From: an uncultured Alphaproteobacteria bacterium
Lineage (GTDB): Bacteria; Pseudomonadota; Alphaproteobacteria; UBA7985
Reading direction: 5' to 3'
Length of the DNA: 64,000 nucleotides
Assembly (NCBI GenBank): GCA_905479265.1
Contig: CAJQLX010000014.1
Location: 9,082 to 73,081 of the forward strand
Under the pieces are notes generated by a model that was not told the origin of the DNA, ran no database searches, and was given only the letters and a program-made list of their open reading frames with translations. The translations under genes and the position numbers were made by a program. Of this stretch, positions 8,137 to 32,923 are shown in pieces. Numbering within the stretch: position 1 is the stretch's first letter; every line of letters starts with the position of its first letter.

Positions 8137-9291
8137 ATGCCCATGTCGTACCTTGAAAAAGTGCAGCAATCTGTCGAAACCGCGCGCGGCTTGCCCAACG
8201 CATTCTATACAGATTCAACAGTTTATGCCGAGGAAACCAAGCGGTTGCTTCACGGGCAATGGGCGGGCGTCGCGTTCGAAGGTGACGTGCCTGAAATCGG
8301 GGATGTCTACCCCGTTGATTTGGCCGGCGTGCCCCTGGTCGTTGTTCGCGACCGTGAAAACCAAGTGCGCGTCTATGAAAATGTCTGCCGCCACCGGGGA
8401 ATGATCCTTGTCAGCGAGCCGGGGAAAGCCAAGCAAGGCATGCGCTGTCCTTATCACAGTTGGACCTACGACCTCAGTGGCCGCTTGGTGGCAACACCAC
8501 TGGTTGGCGGTCCCGACGCCAACCATCACCCCTGCATCGACAAGCCCGAACTGGGATTGCTGGAGGTGCCGACACACGTTTATCTCGGCGTGGTTTATGT
8601 CAACATCAGCCGCGATGCTGGCCCCTTTGTCGAACTGCATTCGAAATTGCTGGACCGCTGGTCTGAATTCCAACAGCCGCTGTTCTTCGATCGTGACGTT
8701 TCTCAATTCACCTTGGATGTTGCCTGTAACTGGAAACTGGCTGTCGAGAACTACTGCGAAGCCTACCACTTGCCGTGGATCCATCCGGACCTGAACAGCT
8801 ACTCGCGGATCGAGGATCACTACAACATCGTTGAAAGCGACGCCTACTCTGGCCAGGGCACAACGGTGTTCAATCCCTCGCGGACCGAAGACGGTCGCTT
8901 GTTCGATACGTTTTCGGACCTGAGCGAGAATTGGTGGAACGGCCAGGCTGAGTATATCGTTCTCTATCCCAACGTTTTGGCGGGCGTGCACCGCGACCAC
9001 GTCTTTGCGATGCTGCTGCTACCACAAAGCGTAAGCCACACGCACGAGCGGGTTGGGATTTTCTACGCATCCGAAGAATCGATGAGCGACAGCTTCGCCG
9101 ACCTGCGACACGTCAATGCCAAGCAATGGCGCACCGTATTTGATGAAGACATCTCCGTTGTCGAAGGAATGCAGCGCGGTCGCAGCGCGCCCCACTTCGA
9201 CGGTGGCCGGTTCTCACCCGCCATGGATACGGCAACACATTGCTTTCACGCGTGGGTGGCGAAAGCCATGAGCGAGCCGTCCTCATCCTGA
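8137..9291 (+). CDS. Rieske [2Fe-2S] aromatic-ring-hydroxylating oxygenase alpha subunit
   Basis: Rieske motif CRHRG...CPYHSWTY and mononuclear-iron motif EAYHLPWIH. Confidence 0.85.
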   Translation: MPMSYLEKVQQSVETARGLPNAFYTDSTVYAEETKRLLHGQWAGVAFEGDVPEIGDVYPVDLAGVPLVVVRDRENQVRVYENVCRHRGMILVSEPGKAKQGMRCPYHSWTYDLSGRLVATPLVGGPDANHHPCIDKPELGLLEVPTHVYLGVVYVNISRDAGPFVELHSKLLDRWSEFQQPLFFDRDVSQFTLDVACNWKLAVENYCEAYHLPWIHPDLNSYSRIEDHYNIVESDAYSGQGTTVFNPSRTEDGRLFDTFSDLSENWWNGQAEYIVLYPNVLAGVHRDHVFAMLLLPQSVSHTHERVGIFYASEESMSDSFADLRHVNAKQWRTVFDEDISVVEGMQRGRSAPHFDGGRFSPAMDTATHCFHAWVAKAMSEPSSS

Positions 9292-9782
9292 GAAAACGCG
9301 TCAGATTGATAGAGTTTTTTATTAATTTTCTTATAATGTAATTTAATTATCGTTATGCGCCCGTTTTGGCACCGGACAACGCCGGTAAATCAAGGCCATA
9401 AAGCATCGCAGAGTGTTAGCTGAGGCGCATAATATTGTTACGTTTTTTAATTATCGTATTTTAACCAATATTATCAGTGGCTTCGGATAGAATCGATTTG
9501 AAGCAACTATATCGCTAAAACGCGACACATTAACGATTAATGGTTCAGTGTTCTGCTACCTTAAGAAGTTTGCCTGTTGCAAAGTCGTCACTGCAACGCC
9601 TGAGATTTGCAGGGTGAAACGACTTTAAATCATTTTGAGAAGTTCTTTTTCAGATTGATATCGGTATTGCTATGTCCGTGACGCACCGGGGCCGCCCAAC
9701 GCAAAACTGCTTTCAAGCGGCGCCGAGTGTCCGAAAACCGAAAAAAGCAACTAACTCGTCAAAATGACGAAGGAGACTCTTT
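9292..9782 (+). promoter_or_regulatory. ~490-bp AT-rich leader/promoter region upstream of the Gly/Ser/Asn-rich secreted protein gene
   Basis: Visibly AT-rich with long A/T runs, unlike the flanking coding DNA. TATAAT at 9332-9337. 12-mer TTTAATTATCGT at 9342-9353 and 9446-9457. 11-mer TCAGATTGATA at 9301-9311 and 9650-9660. Strong AAGGAGA SD just before ATG 9783. Confidence 0.6.
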
Positions 9783-10280
9783 ATGCGTAAGTTTGTTATC
9801 GCGATCGCTGCCCTGGCTATTTCTGCTGCTCCAGCGCACGCGCAGTTCGAAGATTTTGCTGGCTCCGAAGGTTTCGCTGGCTTTAACGGCAACACTGCTA
9901 ACGCAGGTTGTGTATCCGGTGCTTCCGGTTCCGCTATGTGGGGCATGGGCGCTACAGGCTGTACTGCTACCGCTGGTGGCGAATACCAGAGCCAGAACTA
10001 CAGCGTTCAGGGCGGCCAGATCGAAGGTCAAGTTGGCGGCGGTTACTCCAACGCTTCTGGCTTCAACTCTTCCATCAGCTCTGTCTGGAATGCAAACGGT
10101 AGCGGTGAAAAGACCGGCGGCAACACCATCGGTGGCTCCAACTCCGGTAGCTCAGCTAATGGCGTAACCTACAGCGGTTCCGTATGGGGTTCCTTCGAGC
10201 AGGGCAGCGCAAACAGCTTCTCTGGCTCTTCCAATGTCACCACGAATAGCTGGTTCAGCAACGCTGCTGGCGCTGACTAA
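9783..10280 (+). CDS. secreted Gly/Ser/Asn-rich low-complexity protein (165 aa precursor), function unknown
   Basis: Strong SD. Sec signal MRKFVIAIAALAISAAPAHA|QF. The mature part has about 32 Gly, 27 Ser and 15 Asn of ~145 residues (hand count), 2 Cys and a single basic residue. Ala codons are almost all GCT. Confidence 0.85.
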   Translation: MRKFVIAIAALAISAAPAHAQFEDFAGSEGFAGFNGNTANAGCVSGASGSAMWGMGATGCTATAGGEYQSQNYSVQGGQIEGQVGGGYSNASGFNSSISSVWNANGSGEKTGGNTIGGSNSGSSANGVTYSGSVWGSFEQGSANSFSGSSNVTTNSWFSNAAGAD

Positions 10281-10323
10281 TATGCTGGCATCTCAGCTCT
10301 TGGTCTAAAGGGCTGACGGTACG

Positions 10324-10354
10324 GGTTCCAGAGTCATTTGATGGCTCTGGAACC
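10324..10354 (+). terminator. stem-loop downstream of the Gly/Ser/Asn-rich protein gene (possible partial terminator or mRNA stabiliser)
   Basis: GGTTCCAGAG (10324-10333) pairs with CTCTGGAACC (10345-10354) across an 11-nt loop. There is no U-tract. Confidence 0.4.
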
Positions 10355-10571
10355 ATCACCCTTCACAGGCTCCCAAAGCCTGAAAAATGCAGCCAAACGC
10401 GCTGTGAACGACCCAAAAAAACAAGTCCGAAATCAGGGACCAAACCTTCCCGGCACACACAGCGACTCCCGATGTTAGCCAGATAGCACCGGGTCATTAA
10501 AGGCGTCGTCAAGAAGCCGCCAGATGAACAGTCGAGCCGATCGAGCGATCAGACAATTTCGGGGAACGAAA

Positions 10572-11081
10572 ATGACACATGCTTTAGTCCACCGCCACGG
10601 ACGCCGACCTCAACATCAGCAAAATTCAAGACGAAACATGGCTTTTGTTGTGAAATCCAAGCTTGTGTTGATTTTGATGGCGTGCTTCGCGACGCCGGTG
10701 GCCCAGGCTCAAACCGCTTCTTTTGCCTTTGGTCAGGGCGGTTTCGCACCAACGGCCTATGGCAGTGATGGCATATTCAACGAATGCGCTGGCGTGATCC
10801 ACGGATACGGCGCCAGCGAGTGTCTGAGCGAAACCTACCTCGAAGGGGGCCAAGGCGCTACCTTGACTCAGCACCAAACGCTGAATGGCACGGCTGGCTA
10901 TGTCCTGCCGATGCAAGGTGCGGCTGGGGCTGCGGCTTCGTTCAATCGCTATGGCAATGGCGCATCAGCGACGACGTGTGCGCTCTCACAAAATAACAGC
11001 GTCACAAATTGCACGACGGGGGCTTATGCCTCTGCCCACGGTGCATTCGCCAAAACATCCTTCGGATCTGCGAGGAACTAA
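10572..11081 (+). CDS. secreted Gly/Ala/Thr/Gln-rich protein with 4 Cys, function unknown
   Basis: ATG 10572 has a GGGGAA SD. The hydrophobic signal core MAFVVKSKLVLILMACFATPVAQA|QT begins at the internal Met at 10638, which is an alternative start. The stop lies 2 nt before the next gene. Confidence 0.7.
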   Translation: MTHALVHRHGRRPQHQQNSRRNMAFVVKSKLVLILMACFATPVAQAQTASFAFGQGGFAPTAYGSDGIFNECAGVIHGYGASECLSETYLEGGQGATLTQHQTLNGTAGYVLPMQGAAGAAASFNRYGNGASATTCALSQNNSVTNCTTGAYASAHGAFAKTSFGSARN

Positions 11082-11083
11082 AA

Positions 11084-12832
11084 ATGCTGAATAAGAAGAA
11101 TTTTTCCGTTCGGGCTTTGCTCGGCGCAGGCTTCCCCCTGCTCGCTTCCTTGACTTTTGCAGGCGCGCAAACGGTTCCTATCCATTCGTATTCCGCCGCC
11201 TCTTACCCCGCTACGACGCCCTATTATGCTCCCGTATCAACCGTGGGATACAGCACGATTTCTCCAACCATCGTACCCGCAACCGCGACCTACGATGTGC
11301 TGTACAATACCTATGCAGCCACGCCGCCGACTGCTGCGCCCATCCAACCGTGTCCGGTTTTGAATGACTATGACGCCTACTTTGCTCAGCTTTATGGACA
11401 TGCAAGTGGCGCCTCTGCAAACGGATGCGTAACCTCCAATCCAACCGTTTACCCCACTGTCGTTCCCTACCAGCCGCAACCAGCCCTTCCTCAGCCGCCC
11501 CTGCCCGTGGTGCACTATGGCCAATCTGTGCCGCAGCAAAGTTACGGCGTTGTCCAAGCGCCGGCTGTGCCAGTGCGCAAATTTGCGCCTCAACCGGTTG
11601 TGGTGACGACCACACAGCAACAAGCAGCGACAACCAGTGCCGCCGCTGTTGAAGCCGCCGTCGCCAGCGCCGTGCAATCTGCGCCAGAACCACAGGCCGC
11701 AGCCTCATCGCCGCAAAGCCGGTTCCGCTTTTCGACAAACCTGGCCCTGCAATTGGGGTACGAGGCGCGCTATGACATTCAACCCGCACCAACGCAGCTT
11801 CATTACGATGGCTTTGCCAGCCTTTCCATCGATCGGCGCAATGGCACTTACACCGCGCAAACGCAGGTTGAAGACCCCAACGCGACGCTGTCCAAGGCGT
11901 ACTTGAACGCTCAAGCGCCAAGTGCTGGCGACTTCGTGGCACAGGCAGCGCTGGCCGACCAATATGGGAACAGCTTGGACGTCTACCTCGACTCGCAAGG
12001 TGGCACTGTTCCAGTCACCATCGTCCGAAACCCGACCTCCCTCGCAGGAAGCAGCACAGCCAGTGCTACCGGCGAATACGTGGGCGATTCGTGGTCCGTC
12101 GGTGCGACTGTTGGTGTCGATTTCACACCGAGTTTCAGCGCCCAAGCCCCTACGCTTGCTTCCGCCAGTGCGTTCGTGAACACAAACTACGGAACCCTGA
12201 GCGTGGGTCGAGGCCTTGGTTTGCCGTACTCAACACGCGCCTATGAGGTGATTTCGGGCGGCGGTTACAGCTTTGCAGACTTGGGAACCTACCAAGCCAG
12301 CTACGTTAGCCCCGTTGTTGCCAATACCCGTGTTGGCGTTGTTGCAGGGCTCCAGACGCGGCAATTCGCGGGAACGGCTGAATATCAAACCACGCGCGGC
12401 AATAACCAATTCCGCGCCGGTGCTTACGCCGATACCGCGCGGTCCATTCAGGGTGAATTGGGCTACACCCGAGCGCTGGGCAACCAGCGTTTTGTCGGCG
12501 GAACCGTCTATGCCGGTCGCGACGGCAGCGGAGAGTCGTTCTACGGCGTGCAGGGTAACATCGACGTGGGTCGCCATTCATTGCAGGCCAACGCAACCCG
12601 CGTTCGGTCGAACAACCTGACGATTGCTTACGGCAGTGACGTTACCGAACAGGCTGTTTTAGGCGTTGAAATCAATGACAAGGAAAGCTTCAATCAGCAG
12701 AGCCAGCTAAACTTGGAATACAGCTTCCAGGCAACGCCAAACCTGCAGCTCTACGCCAACGCTGAATGGATTGACCACAAATACTACGGCTCCACTCAAG
12801 CAGCGGGCGGCGGCATTCGCGCGTCGTTCTAG
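11084..12832 (+). CDS. porin-like outer-membrane beta-barrel protein with a ~200-aa Pro/Gln/Tyr/Thr-rich N-terminal extension
   Basis: GAGGAA SD. Signal MLNKKNFSVRALLGAGFPLLASLTFAGA|QT. The low-complexity region includes VPYQPQPALPQPPLPVV. The C-terminal ~370 aa shows alternating amphipathic patterns and ends ...GGGIRASF, a terminal-Phe outer-membrane-protein (OMP) beta-signal. Confidence 0.8.
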   Translation: MLNKKNFSVRALLGAGFPLLASLTFAGAQTVPIHSYSAASYPATTPYYAPVSTVGYSTISPTIVPATATYDVLYNTYAATPPTAAPIQPCPVLNDYDAYFAQLYGHASGASANGCVTSNPTVYPTVVPYQPQPALPQPPLPVVHYGQSVPQQSYGVVQAPAVPVRKFAPQPVVVTTTQQQAATTSAAAVEAAVASAVQSAPEPQAAASSPQSRFRFSTNLALQLGYEARYDIQPAPTQLHYDGFASLSIDRRNGTYTAQTQVEDPNATLSKAYLNAQAPSAGDFVAQAALADQYGNSLDVYLDSQGGTVPVTIVRNPTSLAGSSTASATGEYVGDSWSVGATVGVDFTPSFSAQAPTLASASAFVNTNYGTLSVGRGLGLPYSTRAYEVISGGGYSFADLGTYQASYVSPVVANTRVGVVAGLQTRQFAGTAEYQTTRGNNQFRAGAYADTARSIQGELGYTRALGNQRFVGGTVYAGRDGSGESFYGVQGNIDVGRHSLQANATRVRSNNLTIAYGSDVTEQAVLGVEINDKESFNQQSQLNLEYSFQATPNLQLYANAEWIDHKYYGSTQAAGGGIRASF

Positions 12833-12838
12833 GCCGGT

Positions 12839-12886
12839 AAAAAACCCGCTGAGACGCGTTCTGCAAGATGCGTCTCAGCGGGATTT
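12839..12886. terminator. bidirectional rho-independent terminator between the barrel gene and dadA
   Basis: An A6 run, then the 13-bp stem CCCGCTGAGACGC (12845-12857) / GCGTCTCAGCGGG (12870-12882), then ATTT. On the minus strand the stem is followed by T6. Confidence 0.85.
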
Positions 12887-12914
12887 AGAAAGGGTGCACC
12901 GGCGCGGACAACGC

Positions 12915-14132
12915 CTAAGCTGCCATCCGGCTTCCAACCAAATCCGCGACCAGCGACGACGTCGCCGCAGACAGCGTCCACCCCAAATGCCCATGTCCAG
13001 TATTATAGAAGACACCTGGCGCGCGACCCGCACGAACCACCGGCATCATGTCAGGCATCATCGGGCGCAAACCAGCCCACGGCACATACGAGCGCGTGGA
13101 CATGTTCGGGAACAATTCCTGACACCAATCCAACAAGGGATCGATCCGAGCCTGTCGAATATCGCGGCTGAAACCATTGATTTCAGCGGTGCCAGCAACC
13201 CGGAAGCGATCCTCACCCAACCGGCTGGCAACAATCTTGGTTTCATCATCGAGCAGACTGACCCACGGCGCGGCGTCACGGTCGCTTTGTTCGCGCAGGT
13301 TTACGGTGATTGAGTACCCTTTAACCGGATAAACATTCAGCCGATCACCCAGTTGGGACGCAAATTTTCGGCTGGAAACGCCGCTGCACACGACAACGCC
13401 GTCATAGCGCGCTGAACCGTGCTCCGCCGTGCGCACTTCGACACCGCCATCTTTCAGATGCTTGAGCGCTTCAATGTCGCTGTTGAACTGCGCCTTCATG
13501 CCCTTTTTCTCGCAAACCTGCTCCAGCTGAGCGGTAAACTCATGGATGTCGCCGGTCATATCGGATTCGGTGAAAAATCCACCATGAAGCGCGCCCTGCA
13601 CGGTCGGCTCAATGGCGCGGATTTGGTCGGGTGAAATCGCCTGTCGATCCAATCCGCCTTCCGACAGCAAATCATTGACCCGCAAAGCGTGCTCATAGTT
13701 CTGACGCTGGCGATAAACATGCAGGATACCGCGCTTTTCCAAGGCAAAATCCAAGCCTTCGGCCTCGGCGATGCGCAGCAACTCTGCACGGGCTTCCAGC
13801 GCCAAGCGAACCGTGGACACCGTGTTGCCGCGGTAGTTCCGCATCGCCAGCAAAAACTCAGTCATCCATGCATACTTATGATAACTCGGCATGGGATTCA
13901 GCAACAGCGGCGCACCGGGCTGGACCATCCATTTGATGCCCTTGAGAATACTGGACCAGTGATTCCAAACCTCGGCGTTTGAGGCGGAAAGCTGTCCGCC
14001 ATTGGCGTATGAGGTTTCCATGGCGGCATAGCGCTGACGCTCAAAAAGCGTAACGTCAAAGCCGCGATTTAACAGTTGATAAGCCGTGGTTACGCCTGTG
14101 ATCCCGGCGCCAATAACAGCAATAGATGGCAT
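12915..14132 (-). CDS. dadA: D-amino acid dehydrogenase (DadA) family FAD oxidoreductase
   Basis: GAGITG dinucleotide fold, plus METSYANGGQLS and IKWM segments typical of DadA. Confidence 0.85.
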   Translation of the reverse strand: MPSIAVIGAGITGVTTAYQLLNRGFDVTLFERQRYAAMETSYANGGQLSASNAEVWNHWSSILKGIKWMVQPGAPLLLNPMPSYHKYAWMTEFLLAMRNYRGNTVSTVRLALEARAELLRIAEAEGLDFALEKRGILHVYRQRQNYEHALRVNDLLSEGGLDRQAISPDQIRAIEPTVQGALHGGFFTESDMTGDIHEFTAQLEQVCEKKGMKAQFNSDIEALKHLKDGGVEVRTAEHGSARYDGVVVCSGVSSRKFASQLGDRLNVYPVKGYSITVNLREQSDRDAAPWVSLLDDETKIVASRLGEDRFRVAGTAEINGFSRDIRQARIDPLLDWCQELFPNMSTRSYVPWAGLRPMMPDMMPVVRAGRAPGVFYNTGHGHLGWTLSAATSSLVADLVGSRMAA

Positions 14133-14350
14133 AGCTCAGTCCCCTTCGACCGCTATGCCCCCTCCGTCTTCTTTGCCTGAGAGTTTCGAACCAACACCCG
14201 TTGTGGGGCCAGCTCTTGCTCCTTCGGCGGGTGGTGCTCCACCTCTCTCCGGAGTGTTTTACCAAGGACGGTACGGGTGCCTGAGAGATTCCGGGGCGGT
14301 TGCTCCTTCGGCGGTTCCGGCAGGGCCGAAACGCTCTCCCATCCTTGGGG
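14133..14350 (-). promoter_or_regulatory. tandem glycine riboswitch (two aptamers plus expression platform)
   Basis: Minus-strand RNA aptamer 1 (14263-14348): CAAGGAUGGGAGAG...GCCGAAGGAGCAA...UCUCUCAGGCACC...UCCUUG. Aptamer 2 (14162-14254): CUCCGGAGAG...CGCCGAAGGAGCAA...ACUCUCAGGCAAAGAAGACGGAG. A GGCAUAGC...GCUAUGCC hairpin then encloses the SD and start codon. Confidence 0.9.
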
Positions 14351-14499
14351 ATGACTAAGGCGTAAACCAAACGTTCCGCGGCAGCAAGTCCAGCGTCAGC
14401 ATAAACGGCGAAAAGACCCAACACAGAGCCCGGCAACGCTTTCCCAACAGCTGCGCGCAAAAGGACGCACATCCTCTCAGCTTGCATTCGGAGTCGCAT

Positions 14500-14571
14500 T
14501 TTACACCTTTATGTAGCATTTCTCAATCTTATCATTAATTTCTATTTCTATACTTATTTTAGAGTTGTGAT
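14500..14571 (+). promoter_or_regulatory. AT-rich putative promoter region of the cadherin-domain protein gene
   Basis: A run of AT-rich sequence (...ATCATTAATTTCTATTTCTATACTTATTTTAGAG...) immediately upstream of ATG 14572. No defined -35/-10 can be assigned. Confidence 0.3.
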
Positions 14572-16188
14572 ATGCGATTTTTCAAAAAGTCAGGGGCTTC
14601 ATTGGCCCGCAGCGTTGTCCTGAGCCTTGGGCTGTTTTCCACGCATCAGCAGACCCTTGCCCGCACTGTTGATACCTTTGTCGAAATCAAAGGCGCGTCG
14701 CTGCTCACGCCGGGCCAAAGCGGGCTTCAGGTAATCCGTCTCAACGATCGCGCGACGTTGCAGGTGGAGCCTGAGGACATCGTTGTGCGCGACGGCACGG
14801 TGTTCTTAAAGGAACAGATTGCCCACTCAGCTGGAATTCCCAGCACGGACCTCGGCATGCTGTTGGAAATGGTGGAGGCGGAACAGGGCCATCAAACGGC
14901 GAGCCACGGTCAACTTGGCACGATCGCCTCAACGGTGGGTATGGTCGCGGGGACACTGGTGGTGTCCTCGGCTATGGACGACTTGTCAGACGATCTTTTG
15001 ACACTTTCCACCACCGCTTTGGATACCTTGAGCGACGACAGCGCAGAGGAAGCGTTGGACGCGGAAGAGGAAACCCAGACCGAGACTCCTGAGGAAACGC
15101 CGACCAATAACCCACCCACCTTTGGCGAAGCGCCAACGGGGGGCGCGGCCAGTGAGAGCGCGGCGACGGGGAGCGCGGTTGGTGCCGTGGTCCAAGCGAC
15201 TGATCCAGAAAACACAGCCATCGCCTATACAATCGCCGAGCAGGAGATTGATGGTGCGTTCAGCGTGGACGCCTTGAGCGGTGTTATCCGCGTCGCAGAC
15301 CCCAGCAAGCTGAATTTTGAAAGCAACGATGCGCTTGATGTCACCATCGCTGCCACGGATGCTGGCGGGGAAAGCGTCGAGCAGACCGTAACAATTGCCA
15401 TTTTGGACGACCCAACGGACACGCTATCCACCACGCCCCTTTCCGTGGTTTCCCACCCTGAGTTCAGCTCCGGCGCGCTTGTTCTCAGTGATGTTGACGA
15501 TGGCACTGTTTACTTTGGTCATGCAGGCATCGAAAGCACGAGCAATCAGGCGGAGATCGCGCTGTATGTTAGACCCTTCGAGTATCTCAACCGCGAGATA
15601 TATGGCCTTAACCCCGAATATGACCTAACGGCCCCCGGCTTTACGGCTTTGGCTGAAATCAATACCGGCGAGCTGCAAAACGGCCTGCTGACGCTGACCA
15701 GCACCGTGGAAAACCCAAACAACACGTTGCAATTCACCGTCGACACGGGTGATTTTAGCGGAGAAACCGCGTTCCTGTCCCCAGCGCGGATTAAGACGGT
15801 TGATCGGGGGATATCGGGCACCCCCGAGGAAACCTATACCTTGGCCGATGGCACCATCACGAAATTGGGCGACGGTGGATTCACCCAAACCAATGTCGCC
15901 TTTGATATTGGCGCTGGTGATCTTTGGCACTTGGCGGACATTTCAGGTGACGGCGTGGCTGATCTGATCATCAAAACAGCCGGGGTGGGCGAAGCGGTGG
16001 TTTATGAAAACCTCGGGACCACTTTTGACACGGATGTCATGAGTGAAACGCTGTTCACCGGCGTCGATCTTGACGCGCTGGCTGGGGGCCGGGCGCTCGA
16101 CATTTCTGTGCGCGAGCATTTCACGGACGGCAATCTCAGCGTCATGCTGTTGGGCGAGACTGAGACGTATCTGTACGAGCTAACCTAG
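14572..16188 (+). CDS. large secreted or surface protein with a bacterial cadherin-like repeat and an FG-GAP/VCBS-like C-terminal region
   Basis: N-terminal signal-like segment, an internal hydrophobic helix and an acidic linker (DDLSDD...EEETQTETPEETP). Cadherin hallmarks are NNPPTF, ATDPENTAIAYTI, FSVDALSGVIRVA and LDVTIAATDAGG...VTIAILDD. DISGDGVADLII resembles FG-GAP. Confidence 0.7.
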   Translation: MRFFKKSGASLARSVVLSLGLFSTHQQTLARTVDTFVEIKGASLLTPGQSGLQVIRLNDRATLQVEPEDIVVRDGTVFLKEQIAHSAGIPSTDLGMLLEMVEAEQGHQTASHGQLGTIASTVGMVAGTLVVSSAMDDLSDDLLTLSTTALDTLSDDSAEEALDAEEETQTETPEETPTNNPPTFGEAPTGGAASESAATGSAVGAVVQATDPENTAIAYTIAEQEIDGAFSVDALSGVIRVADPSKLNFESNDALDVTIAATDAGGESVEQTVTIAILDDPTDTLSTTPLSVVSHPEFSSGALVLSDVDDGTVYFGHAGIESTSNQAEIALYVRPFEYLNREIYGLNPEYDLTAPGFTALAEINTGELQNGLLTLTSTVENPNNTLQFTVDTGDFSGETAFLSPARIKTVDRGISGTPEETYTLADGTITKLGDGGFTQTNVAFDIGAGDLWHLADISGDGVADLIIKTAGVGEAVVYENLGTTFDTDVMSETLFTGVDLDALAGGRALDISVREHFTDGNLSVMLLGETETYLYELT

Positions 16189-18024: not shown

Positions 18025-18104
18025 AGGTCGCTTGCTCCCTTTACTTGCTGAACGGGACCGTGGCACAGCAGAAGACAAGTTTAAACCCAAGGGAAACTGA
18101 AACT

Positions 18105-19082
18105 ATGGCCGCCCAACCGCGTGTTTTGCTGACAACCCCCTGGCCCACACGCGCCGTCGAAGCGATGCGCGAACACTTCGAGGTGGATATCCACGACGGC
18201 CCCCTGCCTATGCCGGAAGCCAAGTGGCTGGACGCTGTGCAGGAATACGACGCCATTGCGCCGACAGTCATCGACCAAATCCCAGCAGCGGCCTATCACG
18301 GTGCGCAAAACCGGACCAAGATTCTTGGCAACTTTGGTGTCGGCTACAACCACATCGATATGGCCGCTGCGAACGCAGGCGGCGTGGTCGTCAGCAATAC
18401 GCCCGGCGTTCTGACCGATGCAACGGCGGATCAGGCTGTGGGCCTTATGCTGGCGGTTGCACGCGGGATTTCGCTGGGTGATTGGAAGATTCGTGCGGGG
18501 CAATGGAAAGGGTGGAATCCAACCGACAGCCTTGGCACCCATGTTACCGGTGCGACGCTGGGCATCATCGGTTTTGGGCGTATTGGTCAGGCGATGGCCA
18601 AGCGCTGTCACTTTGGTTTTGATATGCCTGTGGTCTTTCACAATCGATCCAAAATTGACCCGGCACTAGCCCAAGCGCTGGGGGCCAAGCAGCTGGACTC
18701 GATGGACGACGTGCTCAGCGCGGCTGATTTCGTTTCGCTGCATTGTCCCGGTGGCGGCGGCAACCGGCATTTGATGAACGCGGACCGGTTCAAGGCGATG
18801 AAGCCATCGGCTTTTCTGATCAACACAGCACGGGGTGATATTGTGGACGAGGCTGCCTTGGTCCACGCGCTCAAATCAGGCGAACTGGCCGGGGCGGGGC
18901 TGGACGTCTTTGAAGACGAGCCGCGGGTGCATCCTGAACTGCCCAAGCTGCTCAACTGCGTGCTAAACCCGCACCTAGGCTCAGCGACGGAATCCACGCG
19001 GACGGATATGGGGTTGATGGTCTTCAGAAACCTGCTTGCCTTCTTTAACGGACAGCCGCTACCCAACGCTGTGACCCAATGA
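18105..19082 (+). CDS. D-isomer-specific 2-hydroxyacid dehydrogenase (glyoxylate/hydroxypyruvate reductase-like)
   Basis: GIIGFGRIGQAMA NAD fold and a typical C-terminal catalytic domain. Start at MAAQPRVLLT (ATG 18105) after AAGGGAA. Confidence 0.85.
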   Translation: MAAQPRVLLTTPWPTRAVEAMREHFEVDIHDGPLPMPEAKWLDAVQEYDAIAPTVIDQIPAAAYHGAQNRTKILGNFGVGYNHIDMAAANAGGVVVSNTPGVLTDATADQAVGLMLAVARGISLGDWKIRAGQWKGWNPTDSLGTHVTGATLGIIGFGRIGQAMAKRCHFGFDMPVVFHNRSKIDPALAQALGAKQLDSMDDVLSAADFVSLHCPGGGGNRHLMNADRFKAMKPSAFLINTARGDIVDEAALVHALKSGELAGAGLDVFEDEPRVHPELPKLLNCVLNPHLGSATESTRTDMGLMVFRNLLAFFNGQPLPNAVTQ

Positions 19083-30751: not shown

Positions 30752-32923
30752 ATGAGCACCCAAATTTCGCTTTCAGGCCTCAAAGTTGATTCTGCGTTGG
30801 CCGCGTTTATCAATCAAGACGCTCTGCCCGGCACGGGTGTCAGTGAGTCTCAATTCTGGGACGGGCTGGCTGGTATCGTGAATGATCTGACCGACCAGAA
30901 TCTCGCTCTGCTGCAAAAGCGCGCCGATATCCAAGCACAGATGGATGACTACCACCGCGCCAATCCCGGCCCCATTGCGGATATGGCAAAGTATAAAGAG
31001 TTTCTCAGCTCCATCGGTTATTTGGTCGAACCCGGCCCAGACTTCGCCATCCAGACCGCAAATGTCGATCCCGAGATCGCATCGATCGCAGGCGCGCAGC
31101 TGGTGGTGCCCGTGATGAACGCCCGCTACGCGCTCAATGCCGCCAATGCGCGCTGGGGCTCACTGTACGACGCCCTCTACGGTACCGACGCCATTGCCGA
31201 AGACGGCGGCGCAGAACGTGGTGGTGCCTATAATGAAGTGCGTGGCAACCGCGTGATCGCCAAAGCGCGCGCTGTGTTGGATGACGCAGCACCGCTGGCC
31301 GCGGGCGCGTCTTTTGCCAACGCGACGGGCTTTGCTGTGACCGCTGGCGCGCTGGAGGTTGCTCTCGACGATGGTTCAAGCGCTGGTTTGGCGGAGCCGT
31401 CTCAGTTTGCAGGCTTCATGGGCGCAGCAGATGCGCCAACCGCCATTTTGCTCAAGAACAACAACCTGCACCTCGAAATCCAGATCGACGGCGCGCATCC
31501 CATCGGCAAGACCGACCGGGCGCATGTCAAGGACGTGCTGGTCGAAAGCGCAATCTCGACCATCATGGACTGCGAAGACTCCGTGGCTGCCGTGGACGCC
31601 GAAGACAAGATCGTGGCCTACACGAACTGGCTGGGTCTGATGCGGGGCGATTTGTCGGAGAGCTTCGACAAGGGCGGCCGCCTGATCACCCGCGCGCTGA
31701 ACCCCGATCGCGACTATACCGCGCCCGATGGGTCTACGACGCGGCTCAAAGGGCGCTCGCTGATGCTGGTTCGGAATGTGGGGCACCTGATGTCCAATCC
31801 GGCCATTCATGATGCTCAAGGGCGTGAGATCCAAGAAGGCATCATGGACGCGATGGTCACCACCCTGTGCGCCATGCACGACCTGAAGCGCGACAGCGGC
31901 AACTCCCTGCACGGCTCTATCTACATTGTGAAGCCAAAGATGCATGGTCCGGAGGAGGTCGCCTTCGCTGATGCGTTGTTTGGCCGTGTTGAGGATGCGC
32001 TCGGGTTGCCGCGCTACACCATGAAAATGGGCATCATGGACGAAGAACGCCGCACCACGGTGAACCTCAAGTCCTGCATTCGTGCCGCACAGCATCGGGT
32101 TGCGTTCATCAACACGGGCTTTTTGGACCGCACAGGCGACGAAATGCACACGGCGATGGAAGCCGGGCCAATGATCCGCAAGGTGGAGATGAAGGGCTCA
32201 GGCTGGCTCGCAGCCTATGAAGACTGGAACGTGGATACCGGCCTCGCCTGCGGTCTGCGCGGCAAAGCACAGATCGGCAAGGGCATGTGGGCCATGCCAG
32301 ACCTGATGGCTGCGATGATGGAGCAAAAGGTTGGCCACCCGAAAGCCGGAGCGAATACCGCATGGGTGCCCTCGCCCACCGCTGCCACGCTGCACGCGCT
32401 GCATTACCATCAAGTGTCGGTCTTCGATCGTCAGGATGAATTGGTTGCTGGCGGCCCGCGGGCAAAGGTGGAAGACATCCTGCGCATTCCGGTGGCCGAG
32501 GGCCAGAACTGGTCGCCCGAGGATATTCAGAACGAGCTGGACAATAACGCGCAGGGCATTTTGGGCTATGTGGTGCGCTGGGTTGATCACGGTGTTGGCT
32601 GTTCCAAGGTTCCGGACATCAACAACGTGGGCCTGATGGAAGACCGCGCAACCTGCCGGATTTCCTCGCAGCACATGGCCAATTGGCTGCACCACGGCAT
32701 CGCGTCTGAGGCTGAAGTGATGGCATCCCTGCAAAAGATGGCAGCGGTTGTGGATGGTCAGAACGCGCACGATCCGCTCTATCAGGCGATGGCGACGGAT
32801 TTCGATGGCTCCATCGCGTTTCAAGCGGCCTGTGACTTGGTGTTCAAGGGTCGTGAGCAGCCGTCTGGCTATACCGAACCCGTCCTCCACACGCGTCGTT
32901 TGGAGCTCAAAGCCGCCCGCTAG
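30752..32923 (+). CDS. glcB: malate synthase G
   Basis: ~724 aa from [13 protein letters not shown] (ATG 30752), with a typical GlcB sequence throughout. Confidence 0.95.

Follow-up and report, generated by a model that had tools for sequence, protein, structure and literature searches.

The window, the whole stretch of 64,000 nucleotides analysed here, carries a genuine two-aptamer glycine riboswitch upstream of a flavoenzyme gene. Taken as a whole, this unit is best explained as an ON switch for a single gene, encoding an enzyme of the DadA6 type that would deaminate glycine to glyoxylate, and we regard this explanation as very probable. In this genome, where it is the sole glycine-sensing switch, the best explanation of the unit is that it stands in for the absent glycine cleavage system as the regulated outlet for glycine. 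The unit is not new in itself, but an ordinary member of a widespread and already catalogued pairing of riboswitch and gene. The features discussed below are collected in Table 1.

Table 1. Location of the riboswitch unit and of associated features in the window.
Feature	Position	Strand	Evidence
Glycine riboswitch aptamer 1 (5′ aptamer)	14259..14351	-	RF00504, 59.9 bits, E 1.8e-12, model positions 1-94
Glycine riboswitch aptamer 2 (3′ aptamer)	14154..14262	-	RF00504, 65.4 bits, E 2.4e-11, model positions 1-94
Expression platform hairpin, outer stem 8 bp (GGCAUAGC / GCUAUGCC), inner stem 4 bp (GGUC / GACU)	14128..14159	-	Sequence, MFE and centroid folds
DadA6-type FAD-dependent glycine dehydrogenase/oxidase (predicted), 405 aa, ATG at 14132	12915..14132	-	NF009074, 660.6 bits; Pfam DAO
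Two sigma-70-like promoter candidates (weak)	14498..14585	-	AT-rich divergent intergenic region
Malate synthase G, likely downstream glyoxylate consumer, not part of the riboswitch unit	30752..32923	+	NF002825, 1248.7 bits

The tandem riboswitch and its flavoenzyme gene

The original prediction of tandem aptamers with near-canonical cores is confirmed. The expected core motifs are present in each aptamer, and a search with the glycine riboswitch model RF00504 (cmscan against Rfam 15) places both above the gathering score of 32 across the full model. A scan of the whole window lists aptamer 2 alone; aptamer 1 is suppressed by a 4-nt overlap between the two matches, so it was scanned separately, and both were recovered when the entire genome was searched with RF00504. 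That search finds one glycine riboswitch in total in this 2.89-Mb, 96%-complete genome. The two aptamers abut, lie on the same strand as the dadA-like gene and share one expression platform, with 21 nt between the 3′ end of aptamer 2 and the ATG of the gene. The P3b loop of aptamer 2 carries a long insertion. Both aptamers can be expected to bind glycine.

The protein encoded downstream was proposed to be a DadA-family FAD enzyme. It is indeed a flavoenzyme of the DAO family (238.9 bits against Pfam DAO), but not a DadA of the E. coli type: it scores 341.2 bits on that model (NF001933, PRK00711), under the cut-off of 383, and belongs instead to the NCBIfam equivalog NF009074/PRK12409, whose cut-off of 494 it clearly exceeds, with residues 1-403 aligned to positions 1-407 of the 410-position profile. 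Its N-terminus, MPSIAVIGAGITG, agrees with the PRK12409 family consensus. The ThiO glycine oxidase model (TIGR02352) gives 142.2 bits for a cut-off of 250.8 and covers residues 120-400 only. The PRK12409 model bears the name "D-amino acid dehydrogenase", as do all of the homologues at 57-65% identity that are plentiful in Alpha-, Beta- and Gammaproteobacteria, for example in Comamonas, Cupriavidus, Paraburkholderia, Bradyrhizobium, Sinorhizobium, Stutzerimonas, Spiribacter and Rhodobacteraceae. No alanine racemase was found beside the gene.

The function of the family is best approached through DadA6 of Cupriavidus necator. On glycine, the dadA6 transcript is up-regulated about 200-fold; deletion of dadA6 abolishes growth on glycine, while deletion of the cleavage system leaves it intact, and expression of dadA6 allows an E. 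coli glyoxylate auxotroph to grow on glycine (Claassens et al., bioRxiv 10.1101/2020.03.11.987487). The gene was located by searching the published colony-PCR primers (PMC11879842) in 78 Cupriavidus genomes, where they bracket one gene on the 2.9-Mb replicon of a 7.4-Mb Cupriavidus genome. Its product scores 754 bits on the PRK12409 model and aligns with the window protein over 403 aa at 61% identity and 78% positives. Immediately 5′ of dadA6 lie two RF00504 aptamers (62.3 and 41.8 bits); no mention of a riboswitch was found in the DadA6 literature examined, including the two sources cited above. The C. necator H16 and window units thus have in common the PRK12409 equivalog, full-length similarity, a monocistronic gene and two upstream aptamers. 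They differ in the leader, which is longer in C. necator (84 nt separate the last aptamer core from the AUG, against 51 nt in the window), and in their genomic setting: C. necator keeps gcvTHP under a second riboswitch, whereas the window genome is without gcvTHP, and C. necator routes glyoxylate into the glycerate pathway. Because this studied orthologue, of the same equivalog and under the same tandem riboswitch, has been found, the proposed glycine-induced FAD-dependent oxidation of glycine to glyoxylate gains support, and by analogy with DadA6 the window enzyme would use glycine as substrate and release glyoxylate in this organism as well.

The pairing of a glycine riboswitch with such a gene is not unusual; for the PRK12409 family it is the rule. 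Among 80 loci encoding family members, taken from species-representative genomes of Alpha-, Beta- and Gammaproteobacteria, a motif search finds glycine-riboswitch cores no more than 270 nt upstream of the start codon in 78, usually as two cores about 100 nt apart, and in a sample of 16 loci cmscan found RF00504 in 15. The two loci without cores are one whose contig breaks off 66 nt upstream of the gene and that of Mesorhizobium delmotii. The M. delmotii locus (L065, NZ_FUIG01000062.1) is the sole DadA6-type locus fetched with its full upstream region in which neither motif search nor cmscan detects a riboswitch. In the converse survey, which asked what follows RF00504 in sampled relatives outside the window's genus, 20 of 22 downstream genes form one BLAST cluster (three members were scanned, and all are GcvT), one of the 22 riboswitches precedes a glutamine-synthetase-like gene, and the last has an unassigned gene behind it. 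A gene of this last kind (L015:1840-3099, on G057:C1) lies 3′ of a tandem glycine riboswitch at 120062-120263 in another alphaproteobacterial genome, which holds a second tandem glycine riboswitch elsewhere; its product scores under the cut-offs for both GlnA and gamma-glutamylputrescine synthetase.

The pairing has been on record since at least 2007. In the supplement of Kazanov, Vitreschak and Gelfand 2007 (PMC2211319), dadA (COG0665) figures among the genes controlled by glycine riboswitches, and according to the main text such genes were already known to stand under this riboswitch. The principal survey of the contexts of glycine riboswitches (PMC6944388) covers only cleavage-system and transporter contexts, and our literature search found no paper that discusses the pairing of a glycine riboswitch with dadA or a glycine oxidase in its main text, the 2007 supplement being the only source. 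The units of Kazanov et al. show the identical riboswitch-dadA pairing, but they constitute a catalogue entry, with no enzyme function, expression platform or link to loss of the cleavage system.

Expression platform and mode of switching

The predicted hairpin around the translation start is present in the sequence and in both MFE and centroid folds, and is lengthened by an inner 4-bp stem. Its 6-nt loop and the adjoining positions hold the SD (AAGGGG), and the AUG lies within the 3′ arm. As originally stated, no intrinsic terminator is present: no terminator-like site was found between aptamer 2 and the start codon. The fold of the leader as a whole is no more stable than those of shuffled sequences (z -1.53). 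The outer stem is invariant, and hence uninformative, in 7 sequences of the clade, and one position of the inner stem appears as G.U, A-U or U-A in 7 closely related sequences, including one double compensatory change. Upstream, a consensus scan for promoters returns 2 sites where shuffling predicts 1.2, which is not significant.

A useful comparison is provided by the tandem glycine riboswitch of Bacillus subtilis gcvT-gcvPA-gcvPB, reportedly described by Mandal et al. in 2004. It resembles the window unit in having two aptamers and one expression platform, and its cooperativity, ON logic and glycine-consuming function match what is predicted for the window unit, but it operates through antitermination of transcription and has the glycine cleavage system as its target. 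In contrast, the window leader has no terminator, its cargo is a flavoenzyme and its platform encloses both SD and AUG.

In the classical ON switch of translation, an aptamer that has folded around glycine makes the anti-SD strand unavailable. Most leaders of the family appear to be built in this way: the SD region has a potential pairing partner in the segment immediately 3′ of the last aptamer core, and a stable spacer hairpin separates the two, as illustrated by CAGGUCCAGAAC in C. necator, where the 3′ part of aptamer 2 provides a clear anti-SD helix. The window design differs. The leader of its clade is shorter, in a layout common in outline to Jiella, Aurantimonas and Aureimonas, where the hairpin begins right after the 3′ strand of P1 and the start codon sits in the 3′ arm. 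P1 of aptamer 2 and the hairpin share hardly any nucleotides in the window's clade. A weak pairing between GGCAA, in the J3/1 segment of the aptamer, and codons 3-5 (UUGCU) may add to the structure of the apo state. Other anti-SD candidates in the window leader (the 5′ leader UCAUCCCC, the core CUCAG against the CUGAG that precedes the AUG, and the P3b insertion) were set aside; they offer just 4-5 bp, and the CUCAG/CUGAG pairing is not retained in the relatives L018 and L041. In the gcvT leaders of the same genus (L036-L039), P1 of aptamer 2 runs into GGGGGCAUCA; its pairing partner UGAUGCCC follows about 45 nt downstream, and the two surround a GC-rich inner hairpin; the motif that follows P1 there resembles that of the dadA leader.

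How strongly glycine binding would be felt by the hairpin can be gauged from predicted opening costs. The hairpin is predicted with or without the P1 helices, and when both P1 helices are imposed, the predicted opening cost drops by just 1.4 kcal/mol (15.5 to 14.1), so that modelling of secondary structure reveals no clear switch. As a rough proxy for switching, we compared the cost of opening positions -14 to +3 with the segment 3′ of the last aptamer core present or removed. For the window, this cost falls from 13.8 kcal/mol with the segment free to 9.9 with it removed (change 4.0); over 70 leaders the median falls from 11.0 to 4.9 (median change 4.9), and in C. necator the fall is from 15.8 to 4.3. 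The change in the window thus has the same sign as in the family and fits an ON switch, but the effect is small: at 9.9 kcal/mol, about twice the family median, the ribosome-binding site is predicted to be buried in both states. The original proposal of translational control through the hairpin therefore stays plausible, while its coupling to glycine binding is only weakly predicted.

Altogether, these folds and the family comparison suggest a model with ON logic, in which the hairpin would be coupled to the aptamers and glycine would act mainly on translation initiation. At high glycine, both aptamers would fold around their ligand, and the 3′ part of aptamer 2 would then not be free to reinforce the structure that buries the ribosome-binding site. 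Translation of the enzyme would rise, and transcript stability or Rho-dependent read-through may rise with it. The DadA6-type FAD enzyme would then oxidatively deaminate glycine to glyoxylate, to be taken up by malate synthase G.

The ON switch could also act mainly on transcription or on the fate of the mRNA, for example through Rho-dependent termination in the leader when the aptamers are unfolded, the hairpin being a constitutive damper of translation. Such a mechanism would accommodate a hairpin that is predicted regardless of the state of P1 and a ribosome-binding site that stays costly to open even in the ligand-bound proxy; the induction of dadA6, moreover, was measured at the transcript level. 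However, the leader holds no intrinsic terminator, and the clear pairing of the 3′ part of aptamer 2 with the SD region in most family members points to translation; we consider control mainly at the level of the transcript unlikely, though a contribution of Rho is conceivable.

Two further readings concern the sign of the response and the substrate. Repression of the gene by glycine would have a precedent in the OFF-type glycine riboswitches that precede transporter genes (PMC6944388), and a hairpin that abuts P1 could in principle gain stability by stacking. Yet the orthologous C. necator unit is strongly induced by glycine, the family platform keeps its anti-SD strand inside the aptamer, which is ON logic, and an enzyme that consumes glycine is expected to be induced by it, which leaves an OFF switch barely credible. 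The enzyme might instead be a true D-amino-acid (D-alanine) dehydrogenase, for which glycine is a regulatory signal or a minor substrate only, as every database name in the family would have it and as the match to the E. coli-type DadA model might suggest. That match falls under its cut-off, though, the gene adjoins no alanine racemase, the orthologue DadA6 oxidises glycine in vivo and is required for growth on it, and it is difficult to see why a D-alanine enzyme should almost always be controlled by a riboswitch specific for glycine; a D-alanine dehydrogenase is thus quite improbable. The preferred reading is still that of a glycine-induced, glyoxylate-forming enzyme switched on mainly at translation initiation.

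Absence of the cleavage system and origin of the unit

The original wording placed the riboswitch-controlled gene "instead of the glycine cleavage system", and this proves literally true: GcvP, the GcvT equivalog and a true GcvH were not found in the 2.89-Mb, 96%-complete genome. Within the genus, the two systems are distributed in a complementary manner. Six genomes (G000, which is that of the window, G002, G003, G005, G006 and G007) carry riboswitch-dadA without gcvTHP; four (G001, G004, G009 and G010) carry riboswitch-gcvT-gcvH-gcvP without a dadA orthologue; and G008, which is 72% complete, has neither. Malate synthase G is 87-96% identical to that of the window in the dadA-type genomes and 79-85% identical in the gcvTHP-type genomes. 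The dadA-type genomes are each other's closest kin, and the complementarity is therefore best counted as one replacement event rather than six; the pattern probably reflects a single evolutionary event. In G004 (82% complete, 4% contamination), malate synthase G at C1:295935-297984 is spread across three frames and contains an internal TGA, and gcvH (G004:C10:536095-536444) comes in two pieces; both may be assembly errors or pseudogenes.

Beyond the genus, a GcvP match (E<=1e-50) is missing in 10 of 40 other genomes with riboswitch-dadA6 units. These genomes (L042, L044, L046, L054, L089, L091, L093, L099, L113 and L069) include complete or high-quality isolates, for instance Jiella pelagia, whose genome is complete, Aureimonas jatrophae and three Ancylobacter.

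The dadA unit lies within a segment of about 6.8 kb (window ~9270-16030) that also holds small secreted proteins, a cluster for an orphan outer-membrane barrel and a cadherin-like gene. The gcvTHP-type genomes are without this segment; there, the same conserved flanks enclose about 1.6 kb of unrelated DNA. The GC content of the segment is slightly lower (0.49-0.58) than that of its flanks (0.59-0.62). An in-situ swap of gcvTHP for dadA was rejected on three grounds: the operon occupies another locus in the gcvTHP-type relatives, the genes that flank it there map to two separate contigs in G000, G005 and G003, and the dadA unit sits in a segment that those relatives do not have. In a maximum-likelihood tree of 69 tandem riboswitches, the window clade groups with the dadA riboswitches of Jiella, Aurantimonas and Aureimonas (Aurantimonadaceae), with support of 99/98, and the gcvT riboswitches of the same genus join their gcvT counterparts from its family and order (98/93). 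It would follow that the riboswitch travelled together with its gene; the window clade stands on a long branch, however, and an AU test does not reject a tree that unites both riboswitch types of the genus (p 0.27).

Glyoxylate consumers, glycine sources and significance

The window was also said to encode two glyoxylate consumers, and malate synthase G is found where predicted. It lies 16.6 kb from the dadA gene, has no riboswitch of its own and occurs in genomes of the genus of either type, dadA or gcvTHP; the idea that it was acquired together with dadA as a partner was rejected on that account. The supposed glyoxylate/hydroxypyruvate reductase-like enzyme (ORF 18045-19082) is a D-2-hydroxyacid dehydrogenase, conserved in both genome types, but it falls under the cut-off of the glyoxylate reductase equivalog (291 against 455 bits). 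A route from glycine through glyoxylate to malate thus keeps two plausible glyoxylate-consuming enzymes, but their closeness is not specific evidence for a pathway, because both are core genes found in the gcvTHP-type relatives as well. In SAR11 (Pelagibacter), likewise a marine alphaproteobacterium in which the level of glycine is tied to glyoxylate metabolism, the riboswitch controls a consumer of glyoxylate, the malate synthase gene glcB, whereas the window riboswitch controls its putative producer.

As for the source of the glycine, the window genome contains 20 GCV_T-domain matches (e.g., C1:33293-34111 and C22:72419-73216), 13 of which lie in open frames of 790-1030 aa that resemble dimethylglycine/sarcosine dehydrogenase and sarcosine oxidase alpha types. 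Because these 20 genes are mostly of dimethylglycine/sarcosine-dehydrogenase size, the genome probably makes much glycine from methylated amines. The set is unusually large for a 2.9-Mb genome and fits a methylated-amine lifestyle. A fuller scenario can tentatively be drawn, about which we remain slightly more doubtful than convinced: the DadA6-type enzyme would have fully replaced the cleavage system as the only riboswitch-controlled sink; all surplus glycine, derived largely by demethylation of betaine, dimethylglycine and sarcosine, would leave through glyoxylate and malate synthase G; and the cassette of riboswitch and gene would have arrived in the 6.8-kb variable segment with a short, Aurantimonadaceae-like platform in which the start codon is paired.

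The present analysis adds three things: it ties the riboswitch explicitly to DadA6, makes a case for PRK12409 as a glycine-oxidising family and brings out the clean split between cleavage system and DadA6 within one genus. Given the riboswitch, the roughly 200-fold induction of dadA6 by glycine that metabolic engineers have reported can readily be explained. The near-universal riboswitch, together with the DadA6 experiments, argues that the PRK12409 family is better read as a glyoxylate-forming glycine dehydrogenase/oxidase, a reading that affects pathway reconstruction in many Proteobacteria. About one quarter of the sampled genomes with the unit have no GcvP, that of the window and half of its genus among them. 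In these organisms, oxidation to glyoxylate is likely to be the main regulated means of glycine disposal, which matters for models of the turnover of methylated amines and glycine in the sea.
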